A stretch of DNA of 64,000 nucleotides from Spirochaetaceae bacterium (GTDB taxonomy: Bacteria > Spirochaetota > Spirochaetia > DSM-2461), in assembly GCA_051531975.1 (NCBI GenBank), contig JAOPTT010000014.1:1-64000 (forward strand), given 5' to 3'. The notes under the pieces are model-generated. The model had not been told where the DNA came from, did no database searches, and saw only the letters and a program-made list of their open reading frames with translations. Of this stretch, positions 10,553 through 26,699 are shown piece after piece. Numbering within the stretch: position 1 is the first letter of the stretch; each line of letters starts with the position of its first letter. A program made the position numbers and the translations under genes.

Positions 10553-10561
10553 TTATCTGCT

Positions 10562-10657
10562 TTTTACGGAATGAAATCCATAAAAGAACATTAAGTCAAG
10601 AGTTTAAGGAATGTAATCCCAAAACTCTTGATTTTTTCATAGTTTGAGGATTATAGT
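10562..10657. repeat. Array of imperfect palindromes at 40-bp period upstream of AAA/DUF4143 gene 1
   Basis: TTTTACGGAATGAAATCCATAAAA (10562), GTTTAAGGAATGTAATCCCAAAAC (10602; 18/24 identical), half-site GTTTGAGGA (10642). Confidence 0.7.
10596..10637 (+). terminator. Possible intrinsic terminator of GH116 (overlaps second palindrome)
   Basis: TCAAGAGTTT...AAACTCTTGA arms followed by TTTTTT. Confidence 0.5.
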
Positions 10658-10684
10658 AGTAATTAGATAAGGAGGACTTGTCTA

Positions 10685-11881
10685 ATGATACCTAGAAAAG
10701 AATATTTGGACTTCCTAATCCGCGGAAAAGATTTACACCTGATTAAGGTTATATCTGGTATTAGGAGATGCGGTAAATCAACACTATTCGAGTTATACAG
10801 GGACTACCTTTTAAAACAAAACATAGACCATGACCAGCTGATATTCATAAATTTTGAAGACCTTGAATATGACTCAATACGGGATTACAAATCTTTGTAT
10901 GAATATATAAAACCTAAAATTAATGCAGATAAAATGACTTATATCTTTTTGGATGAAATTCAACATGTCAGTGAATTTGAAAGAGTCGTAGACAGTCTTT
11001 TTATACAAAAAAATATCGATATTTATATTACCGGTTCAAATGCATACTTCATGTCAGGAGAACTAGCCACACTGTTGTCGGGCCGTTATATTGAACTTAA
11101 AATGTTACCTTTATCTTTTGGAGAATATTGTATAGGAGAACCGGGAAACAGGAGTATAAGCGAAAAGTATAGTAGATATCTGGTTAACAGTTCTTTTCCA
11201 TATACAGTACAGTTAGGAGACCAAAAGAAGGTCATTGTAGATTACCTGCAGGGTTTATATAACACAGTTATTCTTAAAGATGTCATTGCCAGATACAAAA
11301 TAACTGATGTTATGATGTTAGAGGATGTTGCTAAATTTTTATTTGATAATATTGGAAGTCAGACTTCAATAACAAAAGTAGCAAATACAATGACATCACA
11401 TGGTAGAAAAATCGATCCCAAAACTGTGGAAAAATACGTCACAGCTTTAACAGAGAGTCTAATCATATATAAAGCCAAAAGATATAACATAAAGGGAAAA
11501 CAATATCTAAAAACTTTGGAAAAATATTATGTGGTAGATATCGGCCTTAGGTATATGCTGTTGGGGCGAAGGGATGTTGATGTGGGTCATATACTTGAGA
11601 ACATCATTTATCTTGAATTAATTCGCCGAGGTTATGATGTATATGTTGGACAGGTCGGAGATTTGGAAATTGATTTTGTCGCAATGAATGAAGAAAGTAC
11701 TACCTATTACCAGGTTGCAGCTACAGTTAGGGATGATTCGACTTTAAAGCGGGAACTGGCTTCATTGCAAAAAATAAAAGATCATTATCCCAAATTCATT
11801 CTAACACTTGATGATGATCCTGAAGCAGAATACGATGGGATACGTAGAATAAATGCTTTATCTTTTTTGTTAGATAAATAA
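10685..11881 (+). CDS. AAA_14-type ATP-binding protein with DUF4143-type C-terminal domain
   Basis: Walker A GIRRCGKS, Walker B IFLDEIQ, TGSN, KYYVVDIG, ENIIYLEL, EIDFVA; RBS AAGGAGG. Confidence 0.9.
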   Translation: MIPRKEYLDFLIRGKDLHLIKVISGIRRCGKSTLFELYRDYLLKQNIDHDQLIFINFEDLEYDSIRDYKSLYEYIKPKINADKMTYIFLDEIQHVSEFERVVDSLFIQKNIDIYITGSNAYFMSGELATLLSGRYIELKMLPLSFGEYCIGEPGNRSISEKYSRYLVNSSFPYTVQLGDQKKVIVDYLQGLYNTVILKDVIARYKITDVMMLEDVAKFLFDNIGSQTSITKVANTMTSHGRKIDPKTVEKYVTALTESLIIYKAKRYNIKGKQYLKTLEKYYVVDIGLRYMLLGRRDVDVGHILENIIYLELIRRGYDVYVGQVGDLEIDFVAMNEESTTYYQVAATVRDDSTLKRELASLQKIKDHYPKFILTLDDDPEAEYDGIRRINALSFLLDK

Positions 11882-12099
11882 ATATCATGCTATTTGTATA
11901 GGCAATTACCGGACTATTTGTGCTAAATGTAAGGGTAATTTATTTTCAAATTTCACAATTTATGCGGTGAATATAATAAAAAGTATCATCAATAAACTTT
12001 CAAAATCTTAAATAATTAATATGTTCATAAATACTCTTTACTTTCCCTCAGTCTTGATCTATAAAATATGAATAATCTATTTAAAATAATGAGGTTTTC

Positions 12100-14409
12100 A
12101 TGGTTGATACAAAAGGAAAAAACATTACACCCTCCAGGGTTAATAAATCTATAAAGTGGAGTCTTGCTGCCGGTTCAATCGGTATGACATGGTTTATTCT
12201 CTGTACACCACAGCAGATATTAATGGTTTTTATGAGCAACTATCTGGAAGCCTCACCATTAATCCTGGGAGTCTTGATCGGGGGTATCAACATTGCCGCC
12301 CTTTTTCATTTGGCATCCATTTACTTTTACTCAAAATATAAAACTATAAAACGGTTCTGGATCATAACAGCTATGTTTCAGCGTATGCTGGCATTTCCCA
12401 TCGCTGCTGTCGCCTTCTACATGGCAGGGGGAGGAAACAGGTTTGTCGGAATAACTGTAATTATAATCTCAAGTATGACAGGGGCAGCACTGGGGAACAT
12501 GAGCGCATCGGGATGGTGGTCCTGGATGGCTGCGTTAATTCCTGAAAGCAAACGGGCAACCTTTTTTGGAAAACGTTCAGCTGTAACACAGATAGTTAAT
12601 GTTTTCTTCTTTTTCTCAGCCACTTTTGTTCTCGATTATTTTTTTAAACAGGCTTTCATTGTATTTGGTATTCTATATCTTATAGCCGGTGTTGGTGGTA
12701 CATTGGATATCCTCTTTCACTCTTTCATTCCCGAACCGGCACCTGCTGAATCATCTAGGGGAATCAGTTCAAAAAAGTTCTTTGAACCGGTTAAAGATCC
12801 GGTATTTCTCCGGTTCTGTATATTAATTGGTATTTATCTTATGTCAATAAACATCGCAGCCCCATATCTGGCACCATATACTACCAATAAAGACCAAATT
12901 GGAGCACCAAATATCTGGTTAGGGATTATGGTGGTTATAAGTCAGAGTATATGGGTACTTGTGGTTCCTTTTTGGGGAATGATTATGGATAAAATGGGTA
13001 AAAAACCTGTGGTAATAATTGGTGGATTAAGTTCTTTTGCATGGATAGGATATCTATTTCTAACACCGGAGAATTATTCAATAGTACTGCCTATAATCGC
13101 TGTTATTGCAGGAATCCTTGCACCAGGATTCTGGGAGGGTATTTCCCAGATGATGTTAAGCCTGACTAAAGAAGAAAATAGAACAACATACATAGCCTGG
13201 TTCTGGACATTTTTTGGAACTACAGCAGCCATAGGCTCCTTTTTAGGTGGTGTTCTCTACAACTCCCTGAGCAAATATCCCATAAGGATAGGGGCCATAA
13301 ATATATTACCGATCCATATAATTATAATATTATCCCTTATCATGGTAATATTCAGCCTGAGCCATTTAAGCAGAATGAAAATGGCCAATGAAAAAAGTAT
13401 ATCCATGGTGGTATCCACAATTATCAATCCTGGAATATTCCGGGCGTTTACAGGTATGGGTATTTTATCAAGACCTGCTTCATCAAATAAAGTGACAAAG
13501 GTCTTAAAACAGATGAAAGGTTCCTCGGCCAGCCTAGCCACTTCTGAAGTTATTATGCGTCTCGATGATCCTGATTCCACGGTAAGAAGCGAAGCAGCTG
13601 AAGCCCTAGGTAGAATCGGGGGGGCAGATGCGGAACAAGCACTGATCTCCCATTTAAATGACCAGACATCACCTGTGAAAGTTCCTGCCGCAAAAGCACT
13701 GGGAACGATGAGTTCACAGAGAGCTGTCCCCTTTCTCATTGAAGCTCTGTTAGCTAAATCGGAAGACCTCCAGGAAGCGGCGGTTTTATCCCTGGGAAAT
13801 ATAGACAGTGACGATGCCCGGAACTCTCTTTTAAAGACAATAAGGAGTGATGCCGGGGAAGCTATTAAGGCATCCAGTGCCATCGCCGTATCACAGCAGA
13901 AGGTATGGGATGCAGCGGGAGATATTTTCTATCTGATGCATCACGCGAGTAACTGGATTCTCAAAAGACAGTTGAGCATCGCCATGGCTAACCTTTTGGG
14001 AAATCCCGGAAGATTCTATCAATATGTATCGGGAAACCATGATAATAACAGTATCAAAATTCAGCAGCTCTTCTCAGAAGTGGAAAAGTACATTATAACC
14101 CTAAAGAAACAGTCAGGCCAGTCAAAGCCCCAGAGACAGGATTTTAGAAACCGTCTCATAGAGATAAAAGAGTTCTATGAATCGGGAGATTATATAACCT
14201 CAGCAAGAAACCTGCTTTCTCTTTCAGAAGAAATTAGCAACATATTCCCCGATCAGAATCCCTTCTTTGATTTTGGCGCCTGGTATTTAACCAAGATGCA
14301 GGAAGCACTTGATGAAGGGATAGTTGCAGATGTGGATATCCTTCTAGTTCTCTACTTCCTCAAATCGGGATTTTCTGAGATGGAGAAGAAAAAGACTACA
14401 GTAAAATAA
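12100..14409 (+). CDS. MFS transporter fused to C-terminal HEAT-repeat domain
   Basis: About 12 hydrophobic helices in first ~425 aa (DKMGKK loop), then LDDPDSTVRSEAAEALGRIG / VKVPAAKALG / LQEAAVLSLG repeats. Confidence 0.85.
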   Translation: MVDTKGKNITPSRVNKSIKWSLAAGSIGMTWFILCTPQQILMVFMSNYLEASPLILGVLIGGINIAALFHLASIYFYSKYKTIKRFWIITAMFQRMLAFPIAAVAFYMAGGGNRFVGITVIIISSMTGAALGNMSASGWWSWMAALIPESKRATFFGKRSAVTQIVNVFFFFSATFVLDYFFKQAFIVFGILYLIAGVGGTLDILFHSFIPEPAPAESSRGISSKKFFEPVKDPVFLRFCILIGIYLMSINIAAPYLAPYTTNKDQIGAPNIWLGIMVVISQSIWVLVVPFWGMIMDKMGKKPVVIIGGLSSFAWIGYLFLTPENYSIVLPIIAVIAGILAPGFWEGISQMMLSLTKEENRTTYIAWFWTFFGTTAAIGSFLGGVLYNSLSKYPIRIGAINILPIHIIIILSLIMVIFSLSHLSRMKMANEKSISMVVSTIINPGIFRAFTGMGILSRPASSNKVTKVLKQMKGSSASLATSEVIMRLDDPDSTVRSEAAEALGRIGGADAEQALISHLNDQTSPVKVPAAKALGTMSSQRAVPFLIEALLAKSEDLQEAAVLSLGNIDSDDARNSLLKTIRSDAGEAIKASSAIAVSQQKVWDAAGDIFYLMHHASNWILKRQLSIAMANLLGNPGRFYQYVSGNHDNNSIKIQQLFSEVEKYIITLKKQSGQSKPQRQDFRNRLIEIKEFYESGDYITSARNLLSLSEEISNIFPDQNPFFDFGAWYLTKMQEALDEGIVADVDILLVLYFLKSGFSEMEKKKTTVK

Positions 14410-14589
14410 GCCATCTTGCTATCATACATATACTTTAACCATCTGTTTTGTTACATCAATATAACATATTACATGGTTAAGGTACTGTTTTTGTGATTAT
14501 CAGGAAGGTTCGAAAACCCATTATATAAACGACTAATTGACTTGTAACACTGGATGCATGATAATCTCATCCCTTGTTCAAACTTCTCA

Positions 14590-14649
14590 GGTTGTCCAGC
14601 CCCGGGAACCCACTTTAATACCATCGAGGTTTGGAATCTCCAGAAGGTC
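14590..14649 (-). pseudogene. Short frameshifted remnant of a URO-D/methyltransferase-like gene
   Basis: GAC CTT CTG GAG ATT CCA AAC CTC GAT GGT ATT (A) AAG TGG GTT CCC GGG GCT GGA CAA CCT = DLLEIPNLDGI/KWVPGAGQP. Confidence 0.45.
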
Positions 14650-14797
14650 AGCCATCCCCACCTAGGTCTTCCATAAGTTTTAATAGATTTCTGTATGTTA
14701 TCTATCATTTTGATAATTAACTTTTATATTGTTAGTTTACAGATTTATATTTGTCAATGAATATGGATTATAGATTTTAGTAGGAGAACATACATAT

Positions 14798-16291
14798 ATG
14801 AATAAATTTAAAGCCACATTGAATATTAACAGCACTGCCCGGTACTCACGATATGACAGGATGATATTTGGGGGATTTATAGAGCATTTTGGCCGCCAGA
14901 TTTACGGTGGATTTTTTGAACCCGGTTCGCCACTTGCTGACAAAAACGGCTTCCGTATGGATGTTATAGAGGCGATTAGGGAACTGAGGATCCCTGTTAT
15001 CCGCTGGCCGGGGGGGTGCTTTGTAGACAGCTATCATTGGAAGAAAGGAGTCGGGAGCGAGCGCCAACCTTATGATGATGATCGATGGGGAGTGCGGGAG
15101 CCCAATACCTTTGGTACCCATGAGTTTATTGAATTCTGCACATTACTGGATGCGGAACCCTACATCTGCCAGAATGGACTGGCTGAAGTTCAAGAGATGG
15201 CAGACTGGGTTGCATACTGTAATTCTACAACCGGTCCCCTAGCCGACCTGCGTGGATTGAACGGACACCCGGAACCCTTTAATGTAAAATATTGGAGTGT
15301 GGGTAACGAAAGGAGTGGAAAGGGATACATCGACAGAGTTAATGACGGAACTATTGCCATGAAACAGGTAGATCCCACTATTAAAGTTACCTGCTCTGGA
15401 ACACATAGTTCACCAACCGATCTTGATCCATACCTGTTTGAAACTGCTGCGAAGCAATTAGATATACTCTCCGTGCATCAATATGAGGTACTGAATTTTG
15501 AAGAGCACCAAACACCTGACTACCTAACGTGCATGATGTTTTCAGATAAACCTGGACACCTTATCAAAGGAGTCTCCCAGGGTATAAAGAAAGCAGGTTT
15601 GGCAGACAGGCTCACAATCGCTTTTGATGAATGGAACCTTCGATCCTGGCACCATCCTGGTTTTCCCGGACTTGATGATAGTGAAGTTAATTATGAGGAA
15701 TCTGAAGTAACAAGGTTAATTACTGCCAGGGACAAAAGTCTGGAGCCTTCCCTATATACCATGGCGGATGCACTGTTTTGTGCATCATTTTTTAATACAT
15801 GTCTTCGTTATTCAAAAGATGTAACTATGGCAAATATTGCCCCTATAGTGAATCAGACGGGACCTCTTTATGTACACGACCGTGGAATTGTAAGACGAAC
15901 CCATTTCCACGCTATGGCCATGTATTCTAACCTTCTTAAAGACCATGTGGTTACAACTCACATCGATTCGGATAGTCTGACTCACCTTTCAGAATCTGTT
16001 GCCATGGTGGATGCCATAGCAACGTCTAATGAGAAGGGTGATAAATGGTCAATTGCCATGATAAATCGTCATCCTTCAGAAGAAGTGGCCTGTACAGTTA
16101 TTATGGAGAATGGGGTTCTTGATGGGAAATATACAGCAACTATTCTTACAGGTGCTTCTGTAGATGACTATAACGACATTGAAACCCCTGATAGAGTAGT
16201 TCCTGTTAAGATAGAACTGACTTTCAAGCAAGGCACCACGGATTTGCCTCCTCATTCGTTGACTATTGCTGAAATTACAATGAATAAATAA
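14798..16291 (+). CDS. GH51 alpha-L-arabinofuranosidase family protein
   Basis: FGGFIEH, IRWPGGCF, FGTHEF, WSVGNE, AFDEWN, MANIA. Confidence 0.93.
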   Translation: MNKFKATLNINSTARYSRYDRMIFGGFIEHFGRQIYGGFFEPGSPLADKNGFRMDVIEAIRELRIPVIRWPGGCFVDSYHWKKGVGSERQPYDDDRWGVREPNTFGTHEFIEFCTLLDAEPYICQNGLAEVQEMADWVAYCNSTTGPLADLRGLNGHPEPFNVKYWSVGNERSGKGYIDRVNDGTIAMKQVDPTIKVTCSGTHSSPTDLDPYLFETAAKQLDILSVHQYEVLNFEEHQTPDYLTCMMFSDKPGHLIKGVSQGIKKAGLADRLTIAFDEWNLRSWHHPGFPGLDDSEVNYEESEVTRLITARDKSLEPSLYTMADALFCASFFNTCLRYSKDVTMANIAPIVNQTGPLYVHDRGIVRRTHFHAMAMYSNLLKDHVVTTHIDSDSLTHLSESVAMVDAIATSNEKGDKWSIAMINRHPSEEVACTVIMENGVLDGKYTATILTGASVDDYNDIETPDRVVPVKIELTFKQGTTDLPPHSLTIAEITMNK

Positions 16292-16325
16292 GTTATAAAA
16301 CTATGAATCTCACAAAAAATGTATA

Positions 16326-17084
16326 CTAATAGATCAATTTAACCTGTTGTTCGTCTAAATACTCTATCCATTGTAAAGAAGGTTTCTGGTCCGTGATAAT
16401 AGTATCAATACAATTTATAGAACCTATTTTATAGGAAGAAGTTGTATCAAACTTTGTATGATCACATAGTAAAACAACTTTTCCACTAACATCTATCATC
16501 TTCTTCCGAAGGTCTGCCTCCTGCTCGTCAAAATCAGAAATACCATTCACCATGGAGATGGATCTACAGGAGAAAAAAAGCTGGTGGGCATTAAAATCAT
16601 TTAAGAAAGTTTTTGCTGATTGACCAATAAAAGAGAGGGATTTCTCCCTAAGTAGACCACCTGTAGAATATACTTTTATATTTTGTAAAATAGCTAAATC
16701 CAGTGCTGTTTTTGCTCCATTAGTTAACACAGTAAGGTTATCTAGTTTTTTAAGAAAAGGTACCATACTCAGTGTAGTACTACTAGAATCGATAATAATA
16801 AACTCACCATCACGAATCAGACTAGAAGCATACTTAGCAATAATCTTTTTCTCTACTTCATTATCAGATTCACGAATCTCTAAAGGGATTTCTATCTGGG
16901 ATCTATCCACTAAAAGAGCCCCACCATGGGTTCTTTTTAACAGCCCCGATTCTTCCAGCGTAGTTAAATCTCTGCGAATAGTAGCCTCTCCAGTATTTAA
17001 ACTACTACTTAACTCTTTTACTGAGATCGATTTTACTTCTTTTAGAATCTCTATAATCCCTTGATGACGTTCAATTGAAAACAT
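16326..17084 (-). CDS. DeoR/GlpR family transcriptional regulator
   Basis: EATIRRDL, RTHGGA, EKKIIA, DSSSTT; divergent from the GRE operon. Confidence 0.95.
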   Translation of the reverse strand: MFSIERHQGIIEILKEVKSISVKELSSSLNTGEATIRRDLTTLEESGLLKRTHGGALLVDRSQIEIPLEIRESDNEVEKKIIAKYASSLIRDGEFIIIDSSSTTLSMVPFLKKLDNLTVLTNGAKTALDLAILQNIKVYSTGGLLREKSLSFIGQSAKTFLNDFNAHQLFFSCRSISMVNGISDFDEQEADLRKKMIDVSGKVVLLCDHTKFDTTSSYKIGSINCIDTIITDQKPSLQWIEYLDEQQVKLIY

Positions 17085-17133
17085 TACATTTTATATCATT
17101 TTTATGCAAAATAGTGAATAGTATTGACAATTA

Positions 17134-17145
17134 TGTGAATTCACA
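17134..17145. promoter_or_regulatory. Perfect palindrome TGTGAATTCACA downstream of TTGACA in GRE operon promoter
   Basis: TTGACA at 17124-17129, palindrome, then repeated T(A/G)AAC(A/G) units between 17154 and 17190. Confidence 0.5.
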
Positions 17146-17199
17146 CCTTAATATAAACATAAACGATCGATAATGAACATATATAAACATAGGGTGGAT

Positions 17200-18099
17200 A
17201 TGAAAGCAAACATCTTCAATATACAGAAATTTAGTTTACATGATGGCCCAGGTATTAGAACAGTAATCTTTTTTAAAGGATGCAACTTAAAATGCAAATG
17301 GTGCTGTAATCCTGAATCACAATCAACAAAAACACAGTTATCCTTTAATAGTGACAAATGTACAAGGTGTCGGTCGTGTATTAAGGTTTGTAAAACTAAC
17401 TCACTAAAAATGATAGATAATAGAATTGTATATGATCCAGACAGATGTACCCATTGTAATCACTGTATAAGTGTTTGTATTTACGATGCTATCGCTTTTT
17501 ATGGTAGAGAGTATACCATTACTGAAGTGATTAATGAGGTTCTAAAAGATAGGGCTTTTTACAACAAATCAGGAGGGGGAGTAACTCTCTCCGGAGGTGA
17601 ATTCTTTTTACAAGCACACTTTGTCACCGAACTATGTAAACAATTAATGGCAGAGAAAATAGATATTGCCGTAGAGTCCTCCCTTGCAGTTTCACCTGAT
17701 ACTTTTAATAAGTTTATAGGTATTGTTGATAGATGGTTAGTGGATATAAAACATTATAGTAGCAAAAAACATAGGTTTGGAACTGGAGTTGATAACAGTA
17801 ATATATTAAAAAACATAAAGTTACTTCACTCTATAAAAGCTAATGTAAAGATCAGAATTCCCATAATTCAGGGTTTTAACAGTAGTATAAACGACGCGGA
17901 AAACTTTGCATCATTATTAAAGCAGATAAGAATATCAAAAGTAGAATTATTGCCTTTCCATCAGTATGGAGAGAAAAAATATGAACTTCTAGGTAAAAAC
18001 TATGAGTTAAAAGGGATTCTAGGACTTAATAAGAGTGATCTTACAAAGTTTTCAGGAGTATTGAAGAGACATAGTATTGAAGTTCAGATTGGGGGATAA
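17200..18099 (+). CDS. Glycyl-radical enzyme activating protein (radical SAM with ferredoxin insert)
   Basis: HDGPGIRT, CNLKCKWCCNPES, two CxxCxxCxxxC motifs, GVTLSGGE; start probably ATG 17200. Confidence 0.95.
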   Translation: MKANIFNIQKFSLHDGPGIRTVIFFKGCNLKCKWCCNPESQSTKTQLSFNSDKCTRCRSCIKVCKTNSLKMIDNRIVYDPDRCTHCNHCISVCIYDAIAFYGREYTITEVINEVLKDRAFYNKSGGGVTLSGGEFFLQAHFVTELCKQLMAEKIDIAVESSLAVSPDTFNKFIGIVDRWLVDIKHYSSKKHRFGTGVDNSNILKNIKLLHSIKANVKIRIPIIQGFNSSINDAENFASLLKQIRISKVELLPFHQYGEKKYELLGKNYELKGILGLNKSDLTKFSGVLKRHSIEVQIGG

Positions 18100-18105
18100 G
18101 AATAT

Positions 18106-20502
18106 ATGAGTTATTTTGGAACACCATCAAAAAGAATGGAAGAGTTCAGAAATGAAGTAGTTAACAGTGTTGCTTCAGTTTGTACTGAACGGGCGATTTT
18201 AACAACAGAAGCTTATAAAGAACATGAGATGCAGCAAACTGTATTAAAACGTGCTTACATGCTTAAAAATGTTTTATCAAAAATGACAATTTTTATAGAG
18301 CCGCAAACACTTATTGTTGGTAATCAGGCTAGTGTTAACAGAGCAGCTCCAATTTTTCCTGAATACGCAATGCAGTGGGTTGCAGGCGAGCTTGATAAAT
18401 TCGACAAACGAGATGGTGATCTTTTTACTATTACAGAGAAGTGTAAAAATGATATCAGATCGATCTACCCATTCTGGAAGGGAAGAACCCTCCATGACAG
18501 GGCCTATGCCGCTTATCCGGAACATGCAAAAAGAATTTACGATCTTGGAATTATCAGAAACGAAGGAAATATTACTTCTGGTGATGCTCATTTAGCAGTT
18601 GATTACAATACTGTTTTAAAATACGGCCTTAAGCACTATCGAGAGAGAACACAGGACAAACTAAACAATCTTAACTATGCAGACTATGAGAGCTTGAAAA
18701 AAAGCTACTTTTACCGTGCCATTCTAATAACTATAGAAGGTGTAGAGGTTTTTGCAAACAGGTATGCAGATCTGGCACGAAAAGAGGCAAAAACAGCTGA
18801 TAAAGAGCGTAGAGAAGAACTACTTACTATTGCAGAAATCTGTAGTAGAGTTCCTATGGGACCAGCTACTACTTTTCATGAAGCTATGCAGAGTTTATGG
18901 TTCACTCAATTAGTACTGCAAATTGAGTCCAATGGACACTCTCTTTCATACGGTAGGTTTGATCAGTATATGCTACCCTATTATGAGCACGATAAAGATA
19001 AGGCAGACCATAACAAATTAGTTGATCAGTTACTTGATAACTTGTGGATAAAATCACTTACCATTAATAAAGTAAGGAGTGCTAGACACTCAAAATATGC
19101 TGCAGGAAGTCCTATGTATCAGAATGTAACTATAGGTGGTTTAACAAAAGATGGAAAAGATGCAGTAAACGAACTGTCTTTTAAAGTACTTCACTCGGTT
19201 GCCAGAATGCATTTAACCCAACCGAACCTCTCCGTAAGATACCACAAAGGGATGTCAAAAGAGTTTATGGATGATTGTATCGAGGTAATAAAACTCGGCT
19301 TTGGTATGCCTGCATTTAATAACGATGAGGTTATAGTTCCCATGCTTGTAAATGCTGGTGTATCTAAGGTTGATTCATATAATTATAGTGCTATAGGTTG
19401 TGTAGAAGTGGGAATCCCAGGTAAATGGGGTTACCGTTGTACAGGAATGAGCTATCTAAACTTCCCCAAAACCTTAATGACCGCCTTAAATAATGGTATA
19501 GATATCAATACCTCCCAGAAAATATGTGAAGGTATAGGGCACTTTAGTGATATGTCTAGCTTTGATGAAGTATTAAAAGCGTGGGACAGTGCTGCAAAAC
19601 AACTAATTGCTATCGGAGTGACTCTAGATAACTGTGCAGATATGGTTGTAGAACAAGAGGTGCCGGATATTTTCTGTTCAGCTCTTGTTGATGACTGTAT
19701 AGAGAGAGGAAAACACCTTAAAGAGGGTGGTGCAACATATGATATTGTAAGCCAATTACAGGTAGGAATTGCCAACTTTGCAGACTCTCTTGCTGCTATA
19801 AAAAAGTTTGTATTTGAAGAGAAGATTCTTACACCAAAAGAGTTATGGGATGTTTTAATGTCCAACTTTAGGTGCCATGATGGAGAAAAAATACGTAGAC
19901 TTCTATTAAGTGCTCCTAAATATGGAAACGATGACGATTATGTTGATGAACTAGTGGTTCGTGGTTACGCAACCTACATAGATGAGATTAAAAAATATAA
20001 AAACAGTCGTTATGGCAGAGGACCAATTGGTGGAGGTTACTTTGCGGGGACATCTTCTGTTGCTGCGAACGTACCCCAGGGTGCAGGAACCCCAGCGACT
20101 CCTGATGGAAGATACAAGGGGGACCCATTGGCTGAAGGTGCATCTCCAACCCATGCTGCCGATATCAACGGACCTACAAGTGTATTAAAATCAGTTACAA
20201 AACTTGATACAAAGAGTATCTTTGGTGGAGTTCTTTTAAACCAGAAGATTAATCCTGATACCCTAATCAATAATAGGGATCGAGATAAGTTTAGTATGCT
20301 TCTAAGAACATTTTTTGATGATCTGGGAGGATATCATATTCAATATAATGTAGTTTCAAAAGAGACACTGCTAGATGCACAACAACACCCGGAAAAACAT
20401 AAGGATCTGGTAGTTCGAGTAGCTGGTTACTCAGCCTTTTTTAATATCCTTTCTACTGAAACACAAAATGACATAATAGCTAGAACGGAGCAGGTTATAT
20501 AG
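18106..20502 (+). CDS. Glycyl-radical enzyme, YbiW/PflF (PFL2) clade
   Basis: Single-Cys loop GCVEV, Gly loop VRVAGYS; segments RAAPIFPEY, TSGDAHLAV, QIESNGHS, GKWGYRCTGMS match E. coli YbiW as recalled. Confidence 0.9.
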   Translation: MSYFGTPSKRMEEFRNEVVNSVASVCTERAILTTEAYKEHEMQQTVLKRAYMLKNVLSKMTIFIEPQTLIVGNQASVNRAAPIFPEYAMQWVAGELDKFDKRDGDLFTITEKCKNDIRSIYPFWKGRTLHDRAYAAYPEHAKRIYDLGIIRNEGNITSGDAHLAVDYNTVLKYGLKHYRERTQDKLNNLNYADYESLKKSYFYRAILITIEGVEVFANRYADLARKEAKTADKERREELLTIAEICSRVPMGPATTFHEAMQSLWFTQLVLQIESNGHSLSYGRFDQYMLPYYEHDKDKADHNKLVDQLLDNLWIKSLTINKVRSARHSKYAAGSPMYQNVTIGGLTKDGKDAVNELSFKVLHSVARMHLTQPNLSVRYHKGMSKEFMDDCIEVIKLGFGMPAFNNDEVIVPMLVNAGVSKVDSYNYSAIGCVEVGIPGKWGYRCTGMSYLNFPKTLMTALNNGIDINTSQKICEGIGHFSDMSSFDEVLKAWDSAAKQLIAIGVTLDNCADMVVEQEVPDIFCSALVDDCIERGKHLKEGGATYDIVSQLQVGIANFADSLAAIKKFVFEEKILTPKELWDVLMSNFRCHDGEKIRRLLLSAPKYGNDDDYVDELVVRGYATYIDEIKKYKNSRYGRGPIGGGYFAGTSSVAANVPQGAGTPATPDGRYKGDPLAEGASPTHAADINGPTSVLKSVTKLDTKSIFGGVLLNQKINPDTLINNRDRDKFSMLLRTFFDDLGGYHIQYNVVSKETLLDAQQHPEKHKDLVVRVAGYSAFFNILSTETQNDIIARTEQVI

Positions 20503-20536
20503 GTCTATAAGAATAGAACAAAAGGAGAGATATTAT

Positions 20537-21268
20537 ATGGAAAAAAATATACTTAAGGGTAAAGTCGCCGTAATTACTGGGGCTGGTAGTGGTATAGGAC
20601 GAGCTATAGCAATAAGGCTATCTGGGGAGGGAATAAATCTTGTTTTATGTGGAAGAAATTATAGTAAATTAGAAGAGACAGAAACACTGGTTAAGAAACA
20701 AGGTGTAAAGACATTAATTCTACAGGGAGATTTAACCGAGGAGGAGTATCTTTTGTCTTTTATAGATAAAGCTGCAGAACATTTTGGTGGAATTGATATT
20801 TTAATAAATAATGCAGGTATGGCATTAAATTGTAAGTTTGAGGATACAAAGGTCTCTGATTTTGATAAAATTATGTCATTAAATGTTAGATGCACTTATT
20901 TTTCCTGTCAAACAGCTCTTAAATGGTTAAAAAATAGTGACAGGGCTACCATTATTAATATCTCATCTACAATGGGCCATAATGCATACCCTGAACAGAG
21001 TGCTTATATTGCTTCAAAACATGCAGTACATGGTCTTACAAAGTCTCTTGGGAAAGAGGTTTATAAGGATGGAATAAGATGCCACATAATCAGCCCAGGC
21101 GGAGTCTATACAGATATGGTGAAAATTGCCCGTCCTGATCTCTCCCCGGAAGGGATGATTTCGACCGAGGAGATAGCAGAAGTTGCTGCTTTTTTTATCT
21201 GTCACAGAGGAAATGCAGTAGTTGACGAGATACAGGTTCATAGGATAGGAAAAGAACCTTACTGTTAA
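20537..21268 (+). CDS. SDR family oxidoreductase
   Basis: TGAGSGIG, NNAG, YIASK; 34 bp after GRE, probably co-transcribed. Confidence 0.93.
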   Translation: MEKNILKGKVAVITGAGSGIGRAIAIRLSGEGINLVLCGRNYSKLEETETLVKKQGVKTLILQGDLTEEEYLLSFIDKAAEHFGGIDILINNAGMALNCKFEDTKVSDFDKIMSLNVRCTYFSCQTALKWLKNSDRATIINISSTMGHNAYPEQSAYIASKHAVHGLTKSLGKEVYKDGIRCHIISPGGVYTDMVKIARPDLSPEGMISTEEIAEVAAFFICHRGNAVVDEIQVHRIGKEPYC

Positions 21269-21476
21269 TTTTTACAGATTAATATATGGCGTCATCCATG
21301 TGTCTATTAACTTTAAGTCTTGATTCATAGCTTTACATATTTAAATGACAACTTTAAATATACTTATAAATATTGTATAAGTGGTATTGCACACATTATC
21401 GACTCTATATAATAGAAAATCATACCCTAATTATTTGTATTGGAGCTAAATATTATTGTTATTCTACTGTCAAGAC

Positions 21477-21501
21477 GACATAATTATAGCATAATAATGT
21501 C
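21477..21501. promoter_or_regulatory. TA operator-like inverted repeat
   Basis: GACATAATTAT-AGC-ATAATAATGTC (one mismatch) just upstream of antitoxin RBS. Confidence 0.55.
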
Positions 21502-21514
21502 ATGGAGTTTAAAT

Positions 21515-21775
21515 ATGCCACAAATATTACCTATTAAAGAATTACGTAATACGACTGAGATTTCCCGTCTATGTCATGAGAAAAATGAGCCGATCTTTAT
21601 TACAAAAAATGGATATGGAGATATGGTTTTAATGAGCATAGAAACATATGAAAGAGATTTAGCTAGATTAGATCTACTTAGTAAAATTGCTGAAGGTGAG
21701 GAGGATGTTAGAAACGGGAATTTAGTTGAAGCAGAATCAGCCTTTAAAGAGCTAAGGAAAGAGTTGTTTGATTAA
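21515..21775 (+). CDS. Type II TA antitoxin, Phd/YefM family
   Basis: MPQILPIKELRN...EPIFITKNGYGDMVLMSIETYE; RBS GGAG before ATG 21515. Confidence 0.92.
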   Translation: MPQILPIKELRNTTEISRLCHEKNEPIFITKNGYGDMVLMSIETYERDLARLDLLSKIAEGEEDVRNGNLVEAESAFKELRKELFD

Positions 21776-22095
21776 TCAATATAAAATCTATCTTACTCGG
21801 AAAGCAAATGGAGATATCCGGGATATATATCGGTATATAAAAGAAGAACTTCAAAATAAGAGTTCTGCTCTAAAAAATATTGATAAAATTGACAATGTGC
21901 ATACATCTGAATAAGGATATTAAATGATTATCCTGAATCAGGATCATCTGTAAAAGATGAATTTTTAGCAAAAAAGGGTTATAGAAAATTATAATAAATA
22001 ATTATATAGCACTTTATACTATTGATGTTAATGAAAAAGTTGTTCATATAATTCGTATTGTATATGGCAAGAGAGATTATCTGGATTTCATATAA
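21768..22095 (+). pseudogene. RelE/ParE family toxin, disrupted by two frameshifts
   Basis: Three segments in different frames: MINQYKIYLTRKANGDIRDIYRYIKEELQN..., IRILNDYPESG...KGYRKL, INNYIALYTIDVNEKVVHIIRIVYGKRDY. Confidence 0.88.
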
Positions 22096-22183
22096 AATCT
22101 GATGCCCGTAGGAATATAGCCATTTCGGCCATGACCATCAAGGAACCAATTACCGATCCATCCAATGTCGTAATTTGAAAATT

Positions 22184-22306
22184 TTAATTCCTGCCCCAAA
22201 TAGTGTCCATTATCTCAGTATCTGGAATCTTGTTGGTTCCCCCATGCATTCTTTGCGTGTTGTAATATTCTATAAATTCTGAAATTATGCTCATAACCTG
22301 AGTCAT
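22184..22306 (-). mobile_element. Integrase-core (DDE transposase) C-terminal remnant
   Basis: SIISEFIEYYNTQRMHGG..KIP matches the 'Y..YYN..R.H' motif of integrase-core domains; no ends or N-terminus seen. Confidence 0.55.
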
Positions 22307-22439
22307 CTGTAAATATCAACAGAGAATTAGAAAGGTTATTGATAATTACGCAGATCACTACGCTAAGTAGTTTAAGTTAACCACTAACATAATAAAAGTA
22401 CTTGAGACTAGAACGTCAATTTACTACATTCATACAGGT

Positions 22440-23654
22440 TTATTTGATCGTTCTAATAAAATCAATGATATTCATCCACTCTATACCTTCTCTATTACCA
22501 ATTGGCATGCGGTCCATTGAGACAACTATTTTCCTGTAATTATCATCTACATTCGCAAGTGGGGTGAATTCTCTTGCAATCACCTGATCAGATGCTAATA
22601 AATATGTTACCTGAACATAGAGTTTTTCACCTTGCCGTACTGCTATAAAATCAATCTCACGGTCTACTTCTTTTCCAACGTATACCTGATAACCATGTCG
22701 TTTCAATTCAAGAAAAACTACATTCTCAAGGAGTTGTGCTATATCGTCCTGCCGATAACCTAGCACACTATAACGAATACCTAAATCAGCAATGAAGTAC
22801 TTTTCCATTCTATCAAGTATTTTCTTAACTTTAACATCATAACGTTTGGCTGGATATAATATCATAGCACCCTCTAATGCCTGAATATAACTGTAAACAG
22901 ATTCTATACCTACTTTCCTTCCCTGATTTCTGAGGTACTCAGCAATTTTCTTAGCACTAAAAATCTGTCCAACATTATCCATTATGTAGATGAAGATTCT
23001 CTCTAGCAACTCTGCATCTCTGATTTTATTTCTTTGAATAACATCCTTTAGTACAACAGAATTATAGATCCCCTTTATATACTGGACCTTCAAATCATCT
23101 ACTCCTGGCATATGATATAGCCCTGGAAATCCACCATATTTTAGATAGTCATTGAATGCTTCTTCCACATCTCTTTTATTATCTTCAGCCACTTCATAAA
23201 AATCAATATACTCATTGAACGACAACGGGTATAGCTCAAGCTCGACATATCGACCTGCTAGGTACGTAGCAAGCTCGCCAGATAATAAATGAGCATTGGA
23301 GCCAGTCAAATAAATGTCACAATCCAAGTCGACCATAAATGATCTAACTGCCTTTTCCCATTCAAACACTTCTTGTATCTCATCAATGAGTATATATGTT
23401 TTCAATGTACGATCTATTTCTTTCCCAGTAACATAATCATAGAGAGATTTGTAATCTTTATATGATTCATATTGAATCGACTCAAAATCAATCTTTATTA
23501 TTTGATTTTCACTAATGCCTTGATCTATGAGGTAATTAGACAATAGTTTCAATAAATAAGATTTCCCGCAACGTCTAATGCCTGTTATGATTTTTATCAC
23601 AGGCGAATCAATGTATTTAATTAACTGATTTATATATAATTCTCTACTTTTCAT
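22440..23654 (-). CDS. AAA_14-type ATP-binding protein with DUF4143-type domain (gene 2)
   Basis: GIRRCGKS, ILIDEIQ, TGSN, YGGFP, ENVVFLEL, EIDFIA. Confidence 0.9.
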   Translation of the reverse strand: MKSRELYINQLIKYIDSPVIKIITGIRRCGKSYLLKLLSNYLIDQGISENQIIKIDFESIQYESYKDYKSLYDYVTGKEIDRTLKTYILIDEIQEVFEWEKAVRSFMVDLDCDIYLTGSNAHLLSGELATYLAGRYVELELYPLSFNEYIDFYEVAEDNKRDVEEAFNDYLKYGGFPGLYHMPGVDDLKVQYIKGIYNSVVLKDVIQRNKIRDAELLERIFIYIMDNVGQIFSAKKIAEYLRNQGRKVGIESVYSYIQALEGAMILYPAKRYDVKVKKILDRMEKYFIADLGIRYSVLGYRQDDIAQLLENVVFLELKRHGYQVYVGKEVDREIDFIAVRQGEKLYVQVTYLLASDQVIAREFTPLANVDDNYRKIVVSMDRMPIGNREGIEWMNIIDFIRTIK

Positions 23655-23670
23655 GCTTTCACCTTTACTA

Positions 23671-23783
23671 TAGTTCTATTGTATCCGAACCAATATCTAT
23701 TTATAAATATAGTTCTATTACATTAGAATTATATCATTATGTTATGCTAGCATCAACACATTAGTTCTTTTATACTAGAACTA
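23671..23783. repeat. Three TAGTTC-N10-GAACTA palindromes upstream of AAA/DUF4143 gene 2
   Basis: TAGTTCTATTGTATCCGAACCA (23671), TAGTTCTATTACATTAGAATTA (23710), TAGTTCTTTTATACTAGAACTA (23762). Confidence 0.8.
23728..23756 (-). promoter_or_regulatory. Sigma70 promoter of AAA gene 2
   Basis: TTGATG-17 bp-TATAAT on minus strand, between palindromes 3 and 2. Confidence 0.7.
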
Positions 23784-24001
23784 ATGTACATCAATTACAT
23801 TTAAACCTACTATAATAGTTTTATTTTCACTCATTCAGGAACATAGTTTCAAATAATTAGCAAATAAAAGATCCTCTTGTAGGAAATGTCCACCTTATGA
23901 ATTGGATAATCCTGTTTACGTATAGCTCATGTTTGGTACAATTAAAGTATATCAGCGCTGGTATAAAAAAAATTAAACTTGAACTTATCTTGGAGGATAT
24001 T

Positions 24002-24241
24002 TTGAAAATTGATATAAAAAAAATGTTGTTTTCGTTCTTACTTATTTTAACTGTTTGTTCTTACACTTTTGCAGCTGGGCAAAAGGAAGCAGAAGCTGAA
24101 GAAGCAGAAGTAAAAGTACAAACCCTTATTTTGACTGCTCACGCTTCATGGATTAATGGAGGGATGGAAGCCCTTGTTGAGTATGTAAATTCAAAATCAT
24201 CTGAAACAGGTGCAATAATTGAGCTTGACCTACCAATGTAA
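24002..24241 (+). pseudogene. N-terminal fragment of sugar ABC solute-binding protein
   Basis: RBS GGAGG + TTG 24002; leader ...FLLILTVCSYTFAAGQKEAE; stops after about 79 codons. Confidence 0.7.
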
Positions 24242-24378
24242 ATAGGAGATTAAATCTATATTTTGGAGACAAATATGGGATATCGGTAAAAAGAAATACC
24301 GGACCAGGTACATCAGTTTCAATACGGATTCCTGCAATATTTGAGGATGAACTCCTGGGGATAATGAATAAATCCTGA
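24232..24378 (+). pseudogene. C-terminal fragment of YesM-type sensor histidine kinase (HATPase end)
   Basis: TNVNRRLNLYFGDKYGISVKRNTGPGTSVSIRIP...* resembles 'NV..RL.LY.G..YG......GT.V.I.IP'. Confidence 0.75.
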
Positions 24379-24388
24379 TTCTCTATAT

Positions 24389-25717
24389 TTACACTAGTAT
24401 TTGTCTTATAAGATTAGGAAGCGCTTCCACAGCATACAATGGAATTGATAATAGATTATCTGTGTAGGATAAAGGATGTTTACTAAACCGGATTCCCAGT
24501 GGTGCTTCCTTCTCCTTCATAAAAATATGTAAGCTTTTTAAAGTACCGGTTTTTCCTCTTTTTACTTCTACCGGTAGAATAGCTGTGCCATACTGATACA
24601 AATAATCCAGCTCAGATTCACTTCCTTTTTTCTCTCTCTGCCAAAAAAATAGTTCTGGTTCTCTGTAAAACTCTAAAAGTGATAAAAGCTGCTGTCCTAT
24701 ATATTGTTCCGCAATTGCCCCATTGTATATACCCAGAAGATCTTCAGAGAGATATGTCTCTCTGTTAATCCCCATTGCTGACTGCATTAAGCCTACATCC
24801 AGAAAAAGAATCTTAAATAAATTTTCTTTCTGATGGGATATCATGGGAATTCCCGATCCGGAAGTTGATTTCACTTTAGTTAATACTTGTGCTTTTAATA
24901 GTAAATTCAGAGCTTTTTTTATTTCACGGCTGTGAACTTCAGAGTTTATTTTTGAATATTTGAATTTCTCCCCTACAATCCCTGGGGTTTTTGTAAAAAC
25001 TGCTTCCAGATATTCATGATTTATCTTTTTACCATATTTACCAAAATCCTGCCGGTAATTTTGAAGTATAGTTAGTAAAATTTCATTTGTCTTATGGAAA
25101 TTTCCACTTTCCAGTCTTTCCTTTACTGCTTCAGGCATCCCTCCGGTAAAGAGATAGGTATTTAATAGTTCTTCACACTTTTTCTCAATCGACTCAGGTA
25201 TGATGTCACTGTATTGCAGCGATTTCAGATATATACGTAATTTTTCTTCGTTAGCTGCAGATAAAAATTCTCCAAATGATAGAGGTTTCAAATATTGGTT
25301 TTGAATTCTTCCGACAGGTATGGAGATATCTTCTGACTCCTGAATAAACTCTAATAGTGATCCGGCTCCAATCACATGAAGATCCGGCATCTTTTCGTAA
25401 AAATACCGTAAAGCTTTTACAGCTTGTGGACTTTCCTGAATCTCATCAATAAAAAGTAGGGTTTTTCCAGGAATAATATTAACATTTAGTGAGAGCTCAA
25501 TAGTATTAATAATATTAAGAGGATCTAAACTTGTAAAACAGCTTTTTAAAGTATGTTGAAGCTCTAAATTAATTTCAACATAGTTATTAAAACAGTGCTC
25601 CCCGAAATATCTGACAATCCAGGATTTTCCAACCTGTCTTGCTCCACGTAGTATCATAGGTTTTCTGTTTTTGTCTTTTTGCCAGTCCAATAATATCTTA
25701 AGAATATCTCTCTTCAT
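24389..25717 (-). CDS. AAA-family ATP-binding protein with DUF4143-type domain (gene 3, longer subtype)
   Basis: GARQVGKS, LFIDEIQ, GSLL, TGGMPE, SELDYL, PVEVK. Confidence 0.9.
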   Translation of the reverse strand: MKRDILKILLDWQKDKNRKPMILRGARQVGKSWIVRYFGEHCFNNYVEINLELQHTLKSCFTSLDPLNIINTIELSLNVNIIPGKTLLFIDEIQESPQAVKALRYFYEKMPDLHVIGAGSLLEFIQESEDISIPVGRIQNQYLKPLSFGEFLSAANEEKLRIYLKSLQYSDIIPESIEKKCEELLNTYLFTGGMPEAVKERLESGNFHKTNEILLTILQNYRQDFGKYGKKINHEYLEAVFTKTPGIVGEKFKYSKINSEVHSREIKKALNLLLKAQVLTKVKSTSGSGIPMISHQKENLFKILFLDVGLMQSAMGINRETYLSEDLLGIYNGAIAEQYIGQQLLSLLEFYREPELFFWQREKKGSESELDYLYQYGTAILPVEVKRGKTGTLKSLHIFMKEKEAPLGIRFSKHPLSYTDNLLSIPLYAVEALPNLIRQILV

Positions 25718-25765
25718 AGTAGTAGTATAAGATAATATGAATAATTTGCAAATAAGTTGTGGATA

Positions 25766-25830
25766 TTTTAGTCTAGTTTTGTCTAAAAGATACGGTTGTT
25801 TTAGTCTAATTTCATCTAAAAGAGACGGTT
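25766..25830. repeat. Two 32-bp direct repeats (33-bp period), each containing TTTTAG-N11-CTAAAA, upstream of AAA gene 3
   Basis: TTTTAGTCTAGTTTTGTCTAAAAGATACGGTT (25766) vs TTTTAGTCTAATTTCATCTAAAAGAGACGGTT (25799); 28/32 identical. Confidence 0.85.
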
Positions 25831-26046
25831 ATCACTCATCAACATCTCCCTACTATTTAAAACAACAACAGTATTTTGATTATTTCAGCATAGAATCAGG
25901 CCAATCAATTATAGCCTTCTAATTAAATTGGATAAGGTAGCCGATGATCTGCTTGAGATTATGAATAAAGATTAAAATCTAATTATTTTCATGGGTCTAC
26001 ACTATTGTCGTGTTGCTATTCGGCACACAATACTCTATAATTATAT

Positions 26047-26328
26047 ATGGTCTTTAACTGGAACACCACGAAGAATGAACTACTTAAAATAGAAAGAGGT
26101 GTCAGCTTTGAAATGGTACAGAGTGCCATTGAAGAGAGACGTTTTAGGTTAGTCGCTCCTCATCCTAATAAAGAAAAATACCCTAATCAGGTACTTTATT
26201 ATGTTCTAATTAATGAATATATCTATGTTGTTCCAGCAGTCCCTGAGATTGGAGGGTATTTTCTTAAAACAATTTACCCAAGCCGGAAACAGACTAATTC
26301 TTACCAGAAAGGAGAGTGGAAAATATGA
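26047..26328 (+). CDS. BrnT-like type II toxin
   Basis: FNWN..KNELLK.ERGVSFE, HPNKEKYPNQ, FLKTIYPSRK; promoter TTGCTA-17-TATAAT ends 5 nt before ATG. Confidence 0.8.
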   Translation: MVFNWNTTKNELLKIERGVSFEMVQSAIEERRFRLVAPHPNKEKYPNQVLYYVLINEYIYVVPAVPEIGGYFLKTIYPSRKQTNSYQKGEWKI

Positions 26329-26612
26329 AAGACCCCTTTAAACCTTTAGATGAATATGAACGAGAACTTATGGAATATACAGAATCAGCTAACTTTGTTC
26401 CTGTAGAAAATGAAGCAGAGCAACTAGATTTATTCCAGCAAGTAGCAAAAAATACAGCAAAAAAAGATCAGAGAATGAATATTCGAGTTACTAAGAGAGA
26501 TATGGAAGGAATTAAAGCCATTGCATTACAAGAAGGTCTACCTTATCAAACATTGGTTGCTAGTCTCATTCATAAGTATGTATTAACAAATCTCAATAAG
26601 CAAATTAGCTAG
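26325..26612 (+). CDS. Cognate antitoxin with C-terminal RHH/CopG-like domain
   Basis: ATGA overlap with toxin stop; KKDQRMNIRV, EGLPYQTLVASLIHKYV. Confidence 0.82.
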   Translation: MKDPFKPLDEYERELMEYTESANFVPVENEAEQLDLFQQVAKNTAKKDQRMNIRVTKRDMEGIKAIALQEGLPYQTLVASLIHKYVLTNLNKQIS

Positions 26613-26699
26613 GGGTAACTTAATAGATTAAATAACTCTACAACCCTACATCTATAAATGTAGTCTGATTTTTACAAAATTATAATATGAGGTGATAAC

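Follow-up and report, generated by a model that had tools for sequence, protein, structure and literature searches.

Introduction

Genes encoding a single ATPase fused to a domain of the PD-(D/E)XK superfamily are grouped as PDC-S01 (COG1373), which the available parts of two accounts rank fourth in frequency among prokaryotic defence candidates and call mostly unvalidated (PMC12988326; PMC13356809). The PDC-S01 candidates originate in bioRxiv 10.1101/2024.01.29.577857, and DUF4143, the Pfam family of their nuclease-like domain, was entered as PD-(D/E)XK with function unknown (PMC3424549, in the portion available). Here, we describe three genes of this same build, genes 1 to 3, in positions 1 to 64,000 of contig JAOPTT010000014.1 of a Spirochaetaceae bacterium (assembly GCA_051531975.1), a stretch of 64,000 nucleotides (nt) hereafter called the window. 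Each of them is preceded by its own array of repeated boxes. We consider it quite probable that the three are one-gene cassettes, each protein being predicted to bind the boxes of its own promoter and to limit its own transcription; the observed basis lies in private boxes of fixed period and fixed position, together with the predicted domain fold and the co-variation of protein residue 246 with one box base.

In the parts available of three sources on PDC-S01 and DUF4143 (bioRxiv 10.1101/2024.01.29.577857; PMC12988326; PMC3424549), promoter boxes, DNA reading by a winged helix and a specificity code go unmentioned, and no published account of promoter arrays at genes with the Pfam domains AAA_14 and DUF4143 was found in a search that left subscription papers and bioRxiv supplements largely outside. 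One PDC-S01 representative, assayed with T4, T5 and T7 after vector-borne expression in E. coli B, is not among the four protective candidates of eight in the available part of that report (bioRxiv 10.1101/2024.09.26.614923).

A close regulatory parallel is that of the restriction-modification controller (C) proteins and their C-boxes, for example C.PvuII, in which a nuclease is autogenously controlled through at least two palindromic operators on the controller's own promoter, a type of control presented, in the accessible part of the source, as suited to horizontal transfer (PMC2175313). In C-protein systems, however, the controller is a separate C gene, whereas in genes 1–3 the ATPase-nuclease would read DNA through a winged helix of its own, and neither a separate controller gene nor a conserved methyltransferase partner was found among 96 neighbouring genes. 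AbiEi, of the type IV toxin-antitoxin system AbiE, also has a winged helix and represses itself via two inverted repeats on its own promoter (PMC3985639, partial text), but AbiE is bicistronic with a nucleotidyltransferase toxin, while genes 1–3 stand alone and encode an AAA+ ATPase. A leading ATPase followed by a restriction-endonuclease fold, in sporadic and mobile elements, recurs in the Crinkler-RHS-type elements (PMC11342252, in the part available); unlike in these, no second end, near-identical copies or excision were seen here. The order of AAA+ ATPase and then winged helix is shared with archaeal Orc1/Cdc6 (2qby, 2v1u), PAB2304 (2qen) and SSO1545 (2fna), from which genes 1–3 differ by an extra C-terminal nuclease-like domain and by boxes fixed to sigma70 elements; nothing pointing to an origin function came up here, where the analysis covered only a composition profile and did not look for one. 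Archaeal orc1/cdc6 genes adjoin their own origin boxes. The arrays reported here are best seen as a variant of autoregulated conflict genes and not as a new class; what this analysis adds are two fixed array periods and a one-residue code, the latter a candidate, which open the family to direct tests.

Three Genes and Their Promoter Arrays

Three open reading frames (ORFs) of the window match both AAA_14 and DUF4143 above cut-off, each being a single gene without an obligatory partner: gene 1 (10685..11881, forward strand, 398 amino acids), gene 2 (22440..23654, reverse strand, 404 amino acids) and gene 3 (24389..25717, reverse strand, 442 amino acids). All three proteins match PADLOC models of PDC-S01 at E values of 1e-148 to 1e-159, genes 1 and 2 (42% identical to each other) with PDLC04787 and gene 3 with PDLC04788. 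The host genome, of 5.46 Mb and 31.5% GC, contains eight DUF4143 matches in all.

The original prediction, which was made from the letters of the window, held that two or three boxes precede each of these genes (starts at 10685+, 23654- and 25717-) and that the motif differs from gene to gene, and its coordinates are confirmed. At gene 1, a distal box (10561..10586, forward strand), a GGA-N6-TCC palindrome with T/A-tract flanks, is paired with the main box (10601..10626, forward strand); both are self-complementary at 18 of 26 positions. The main box ends 1 nt before the predicted -35 element, and a proximal half-site (10641..10650, forward strand) lies 40 nt after it, within the -35/-10 spacer, the box period being 40. 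The predicted sigma70 promoter (10628..10657, forward strand; TTGATT, 18 nt, TATAGT) comes from a consensus scan in which the match alone is not above shuffle expectation; its layout is shared by the homologues.

Gene 2 has three boxes on the reverse strand, spaced by 52 and 39 nt. Box 1 (23762..23783; 18 of 22 positions self-complementary) is centred 16 nt before the predicted -35, box 2 (23710..23731; 16 of 22) overlaps the predicted -10, and the degenerate box 3 (23671..23692; 12 of 22, 16.6 bits) lies between the predicted transcription start and the ribosome site. The sigma70 promoter predicted by the consensus scan occupies 23728..23756 on the same strand (TTGATG, 17 nt, TATAAT, extended TG). 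At gene 3, two units of 33 base pairs (bp), unit A (25798..25830, reverse strand) and unit B (25765..25797, reverse strand), follow each other head to tail with 28 of 33 positions identical, upstream of a weak consensus match to a sigma70 promoter (25724..25751, reverse strand; TTGCAA, 16 nt, TATACT). The palindrome TTTTAG-N11-CTAAAA, ascribed to gene 3 in the original prediction, is present inside each unit (16 of 23 positions self-complementary), but, since the subfamily of this gene shows no enrichment of palindromes, the array is better called a direct repeat of 33 bp. At all three genes, repeated sites abut or overlap the gene's own promoter, as in an autoregulated operator, with the reservation that these promoters are consensus predictions and each is weak by itself; this position fits autoregulation.

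Privacy of the Arrays Within the Genome

Repeat scores were computed over 150 nt upstream and compared with those of 1848 control upstream regions, taken from crude ORF calls and with at least 100 nt of non-coding DNA. Controls scored as high as genes 1, 2 and 3 in 47, 47 and 21 cases respectively, placing the three genes in the top 1–3%, and none of 200 dinucleotide shuffles reached the score of any of them. The original prediction, in which no comparable arrays were seen before the metabolic genes, needs a correction here: about 1–3% of other genes have comparable repeat scores, mostly owing to plain tandem repeats. Five other paralogues of the genome rank 32, 86, 197, 262 and 1483 against the same controls, hence most, not all, paralogues carry the signal.

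The motifs themselves are private. A matrix built from 28 homologue boxes, gene 1 itself being excluded, and scanned over the 5.46 Mb gives its best score to the box at 10601 (30.9 bits, the next site reaching 15.4), and 10561/10601 is the sole pair of such sites genome-wide. The gene 2 matrix (17 boxes from five gene 2 homologues) ranks 23710 first (26.4 bits) and 23762 second (20.9), with an unrelated site next at 20.7, and yields two site pairs in the genome, both at gene 2. On the promoters of the other two genes, each of these two matrices gives a negative score. The 33-bp unit of gene 3 differs from its twin by 5 mismatches and from the next-best match in the genome by 8. Since nothing comparable, single or paired, occurs elsewhere in the genome, there is no regulon, and the expectation that the motifs are private, and not common before unrelated genes, is borne out by the matrices, which pick the own promoters of genes 1 and 2. 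In addition, an Rfam scan of positions 9000–28000 returned 0 matches, that is, no known structured RNA family.

The Arrays Across the Family

The closest relatives of gene 1 are spirochaetal (89% and 77% identity), followed by proteins of 71–76% mostly from Bacillota. Among the best 80 of 137 relatives (57–89% identity; spirochaetes, then mostly Bacillota), a TTTT-GGA-N5/6-TCC-AAAA box stands directly before TTGA, often with a half-site before the -10, and this box type is kept in both spirochaetes and Bacillota. Six close relatives of gene 2 carry three to four TCTA-N6-TAGA boxes each. The nearest relative of gene 3 has 56% identity, and few close ones occur in the material examined: none was found in viral contigs, and its model at E 1e-130 matched 0 of 150 Clostridia genomes in a search in which the control was also silent.

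Enrichment was assessed on 129 non-redundant family members (below 60% identity) against 437 neighbouring-gene controls. The 95th percentile of the controls was exceeded by 37 of the 129 upstream regions, compared with 6 of 126 regions further upstream and 11 of 122 downstream; repeats are thus enriched before the homologues, a check of the kind that the original prediction had proposed. When direct repeats of at least 16 bits are counted, they occur in 112 of 274 loci of the gene 1/2 type (a redundant set) and in 28 of 41 of the gene 3 type, and their period is 39–41 bp in 89 of the 112 and 32–33 bp in 26 of the 28. Controls had such a repeat in 43 of 437 cases, with periods scattered. Palindromes occur in 137 of 274 loci of the gene 1/2 type, an enrichment over the controls (76 of 437) that the gene 3 type (8 of 41) does not show.

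Boxes were also called blind to the protein, at a fixed threshold. The position of the resulting confident boxes is constrained: TTGA starts 13–17 nt past the box centre in 44 of 105 of them, and at exactly 15 in 26. Half-sites matching the box of the same locus recur 38–41 nt away in 12–25 of 52 loci, where other offsets give 1–5 of 52; inner halves do so more frequently than outer ones.

Two further paralogues in the host genome also have private arrays. Upstream of the C1 paralogue (40554–41912, reverse strand) there are three copies of a 12-bp word with a 33-bp period, and upstream of the C9 paralogue at about 86677 (forward strand) one long palindrome encloses the -35 and is kept in relatives of 65–78% identity.

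Residue 246 and the Outer Core Base

Lys246 of gene 1 (codon 11420..11422, forward strand) is the residue whose identity changes together with the outer core base of the box, a G at this gene; in gene 2 the equivalent residue is Glu251 and the base C. Lys, Arg and His read G in the major groove, and Asp and Glu read C. A rule for this base was written from a first set of loci: G if residue 246 is K/R/H, C if it is D/E and T if it is N (tested as N/Q). Both genes obey it. The rule fits 54 of 72 arms of that set, compared with 22.3 after shuffling. Of 32 held-out loci, 20 have such a residue, and the rule fits 27 of their 40 arms, compared with 11.8. In the first set, the excess of box-core similarity over overall identity peaks at or near residues 242–251 under most settings; with the strict threshold these residues came first at 90% and 70% redundancy, and elsewhere they ranked second to fourth. 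Excess mutual information is highest at residue 246 among 398 columns (0.77, the next being 0.44), and in cross-validation between the two sets the residue ranks 1 of 398 in both directions, residue 244 coming first for the next base.

Plasmid loci gave a further sample. Confident boxes were present in 6 of 13, and the five with K or H at residue 246 have G in 10 of 10 arms, among them Moraxella, Listeria and Enterococcus proteins that are only 50–53% identical to any used before; the sixth has P and base A. In the remaining seven (four from Acinetobacter, three others) no confident box was found. G stands in both arms in 20 of 24 K/R/H proteins and in neither arm in 44 of 45 others. It is likely that K/R/H at residue 246 goes with box base G, while the D/E–C and N–T pairings can be put forward only tentatively.

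Predicted Fold and Nuclease-Like Active Site

An AlphaFold model of the gene 1 protein, obtained from a 72-sequence alignment (mean predicted local distance difference test score 90.8, predicted template modelling score 0.91), contains a helix-turn-helix at residues 229–257 and a beta wing at 261–283. The winged-helix part would thus span residues 225–283 (11357..11533, forward strand), with residues 245–257 as recognition helix, so that the central region, which the original prediction had called helical, is in the model a winged helix and not helical alone. Fold searches covered residues 1–294 and barely probed the C-terminal domain; the best matches are PAB2304 (2qen; Z 17.9, root-mean-square deviation 3.4, 263 residues aligned) and SSO1545 (2fna; Z 17.6), followed by NLR/STAND proteins and DNA-bound Orc1/Cdc6 (2qby; Z 14.5, root-mean-square deviation 10.2, 259 aligned), and the ATPase part is also similar in fold to TnsC and MuB. 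An alignment-based sequence search of the PDB gave nothing below E 0.07, and a weak match to the RpoN helix-turn-helix at 225–256 (E 0.37) serves only to locate the helix. The intact Walker A and B motifs, together with the AAA+ and winged-helix folds of the model, place the protein in the Orc1/Cdc6-STAND clade; by predicted fold and family match, it begins with an Orc1/Cdc6-STAND-like ATPase, continues with a winged helix and ends in a domain of the PD-(D/E)XK type.

Across 230 members of the gene 1/2 subfamily, Walker A (GxRRxGKS), Walker B (DE), R134, R266, E305, D330 and Q343 are 98–100% conserved (Q343 in all), and R356, E357 and K370 97–99%. The position of the catalytic lysine, 345, is A, S, T, C or V and never Lys. 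Of the D...(E/Q)x(K/T/A) motif that had been proposed for all three proteins, genes 1 and 2 show D...Q-x-A and D...Q-x-T, in which the lysine is missing; the canonical PD-(D/E)XK site, D...E-x-K (ELD...EVK), is found in gene 3 alone. In the gene 1/2 subfamily, the conserved K370 may substitute for the missing catalytic lysine.

Homology Limits and Mobility

Similarity at the DNA level to the nearest relatives extends from the stop codon to 10601 in gene 1 and to 23738–23835 in gene 2, so that the homologous DNA is the gene plus 80–180 nt upstream, ending at the array and at the stop codon; among 188 loci compared, no DNA similarity was found beyond the genes plus 300 nt. These limits, the private motifs and the tracking of one box base by residue 246 agree with the idea, already advanced in the original prediction, of a self-contained cassette with co-varying cognate sites.

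A mobile unit that uses its leader as a transposon end is not supported: no downstream boxes, near-identical paralogues or excision joints were found. In 76 loci of the gene 1 clade, the gene 1 matrix has 73 matches within 250 nt upstream, a count that is partly circular because the matrix was built from some of those loci, and 1 match in about 445 kb of flanks; there is none in the gene and none in 400 nt downstream. Paralogues of the same genome (79 pairs, 40 genomes) reach at most 69% identity, bearing in mind that assemblies can collapse identical copies; no syntenic empty site was found in 37 family genomes, in which draft assembly can hide copies, and contigs of the likely source sample contained no joint at these genes. 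RNA contigs from that sample do not reach the genes and are uninformative. A XerC/D-site-like consensus pattern, searched in four Acinetobacter loci, was not found.

Proposed Mechanism and Alternative Explanations

If genes 1–3 are self-limiting cassettes, each palindrome would be read by a pair of protomers whose recognition helices sit on the 3-bp cores, and the ATPase domains could oligomerise along the array. A box copy over the -10 would block RNA polymerase. A copy just upstream of the -35 may anchor the protein or might even have an activating role, a situation known from the controller circuits of restriction-modification systems. The purpose would be to keep a potentially harmful ATP-gated nuclease low without a host regulator, and such self-limitation would account for a gene that travels alone between phyla and for the coexistence of paralogues with different boxes. 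Anti-invader defence is the likeliest downstream job, although we give it only about an even chance.

Several results weigh against this proposal. The arrays are not universal: confident boxes were called in 105 of 230 upstream regions and in 48 of 225 control stretches, and, because control stretches pass too, some of the calls must be wrong; the four Acinetobacter plasmid loci (L383–L386) have none within the searched upstream window, and the repeat score of paralogue C9- is at background. On a contrast tree of 69 rows, from which the winged-helix columns were left out, K/R/H changes six times, giving five independent pairs (mean 3.9 in the same direction, 0 opposite, p 0.125), and the D/E–C pairing is without signal. 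In the held-out loci the whole-box Mantel correlation is weak (r 0.10–0.14, the helix ranking 47–81 of 390 windows, p about 0.02), and residue 246 ranks 10 of 398, with 9 of 12 arms matched, when the held-out proteins are restricted to the 14 whose identity to the first set is below 60%. A co-variation of the wing with the A-tract flank, the top window in the first set, fell to r -0.05 to -0.01 in the held-out loci and was dropped. Finally, co-resident paralogues share residue 246 in 12 of 79 pairs, about the rate of random pairs (15.6% expected), which gives no support to selection for orthogonal paralogues.

Among the alternatives, it is possible, if on the unlikely side, that the gene 1/2-type proteins are autoregulating DNA-binding ATPase switches whose nuclease-like domain does not cut, with no role in defence and an island association due to hitch-hiking. 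Such switches are compatible with the operator reading, and the missing lysine at position 345, the PDC-S01 representative that was not among the protective candidates in E. coli B and the prevalence of housekeeping genes among the named neighbours all agree with them, but E305, D330, Q343, R356, E357 and K370 show the conservation expected of an active site, the gene 3 motif is canonical, and plasmid copies adjoin BREX, restriction-modification, Fic and toxin-antitoxin genes. In the opposite direction, the self-limitation proposal can be extended to self-addressed cassettes with a full one-residue code (K/R/H–G, D/E–C, N–T and P/V with A), an oligomer ruler of 40 or 33 bp and an array that tethers and parks the nuclease until tether or supply is lost, as in infection; we judge this extended version unlikely. 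Improbable, in our view, is that the boxes are no simple off-switch but loading sites on which the ATPase assembles, in the way of Orc1/Cdc6 at origin boxes or TnsC at transposon targets, for the nuclease to cut or nick nearby and mobilise or spread the cassette. The similarity in fold to Orc1/Cdc6 and, for the ATPase part, to TnsC and MuB speaks for it, as does a solo gene found across phyla in unrelated contexts with no fixed neighbour and with up to 27 DUF4143 matches within one genome; the confinement of matrix matches to the upstream side, the 69% ceiling on paralogue identity, the lack of joints in the source-sample contigs and the locking of the boxes to promoter elements speak against it.

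Very improbable is a role for another, host-encoded regulator that binds the boxes, linkage alone carrying them with the gene. Shared ancestry can indeed make box and protein co-vary, and the independent contrasts are few; nevertheless, the same box occurs in spirochaetes and Bacillota, neither a regulon nor a conserved neighbouring regulator was found, and the best-predicting column sits in the recognition helix of the protein itself. Hardly credible is that the boxes are chance palindromes in intergenic DNA of 31% GC, or repeats of a transcribed guide or structural RNA. The 1–3% of control upstream regions scoring as high and the control stretches on which the blind caller fires speak for chance, but conservation across phyla and the fixed period and position largely refute that version; for RNA, there is no Rfam match, and most copies, being placed on the predicted promoter or before it, would not be transcribed.

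Returning to self-limitation through promoter boxes, a common family gains its first direct handles: a probable DNA site, a candidate reading residue and an array geometry. Arrays acting as self-operators would also explain how the native behaviour could escape tests by plain overexpression. If correct, the proposal would link Orc1/Cdc6-STAND ATPases to self-regulated promoter binding in bacteria and provide a natural library of orthogonal winged-helix/operator pairs; should the tether also prove true, a single protein would combine regulator, sensor and effector, with naturally orthogonal and reprogrammable operators.

Genomic Neighbours and Additional Observations

The neighbour scan covered 96 of the 97 nearest neighbours, the one omitted being itself a family member. 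No recurring partner and no conserved regulator or controller was found among the 96 (a methylase once, AbiEii once); 29 belong to no family, about 15 are of mobile or defence type by reading and the rest are mostly housekeeping, these being raw counts with no baseline. Relatives occur on 215 plasmid records, 172 of them from Acinetobacter, and in 17 records of phage collections; the Acinetobacter plasmid copies stand two genes before BREX in 2 of 4 inspected. In a conjugative element (L046:2113–6573), a relative of gene 1 with its boxes lies between the coupling-protein and TrbL genes, and near a relative of gene 2 there is an ORF with an AAA_14-CinA fusion (L113:1–1182, reverse strand).

Within the window, gene 1 is alone between a glycosidase and a transporter; the latter, directly after it (12100–14409, forward strand), is of the MFS type fused to C-terminal HEAT repeats. 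Genes 2 and 3 are surrounded by toxin-antitoxin genes and gene fragments. At 21516–22095 (forward strand) a Phd/YefM antitoxin is followed by a ParE/RelE-like toxin gene broken by frameshifts and stops, a pair with relatives in several genomes of the family, and right behind gene 2 (22111–22214, reverse strand) lie the decayed remains of a sulfatase-like sequence with 79% similarity to a gene of contig C5. In the gap separating genes 2 and 3 (23877–24241, forward strand), a 42-nt piece 90% identical to an intergenic stretch of C5 is followed by an ORF of 114 amino acids that has no Pfam match and resembles a truncated lipoprotein start. The sulfatase remnant and the 42-nt piece are the internal genome matches near gene 2 and are not element ends. 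Divergent from gene 3, at 26047–26612 (forward strand), there is a pair formed by a BrnT-like gene (a weak match, E 0.04) and a CopG-type antitoxin.

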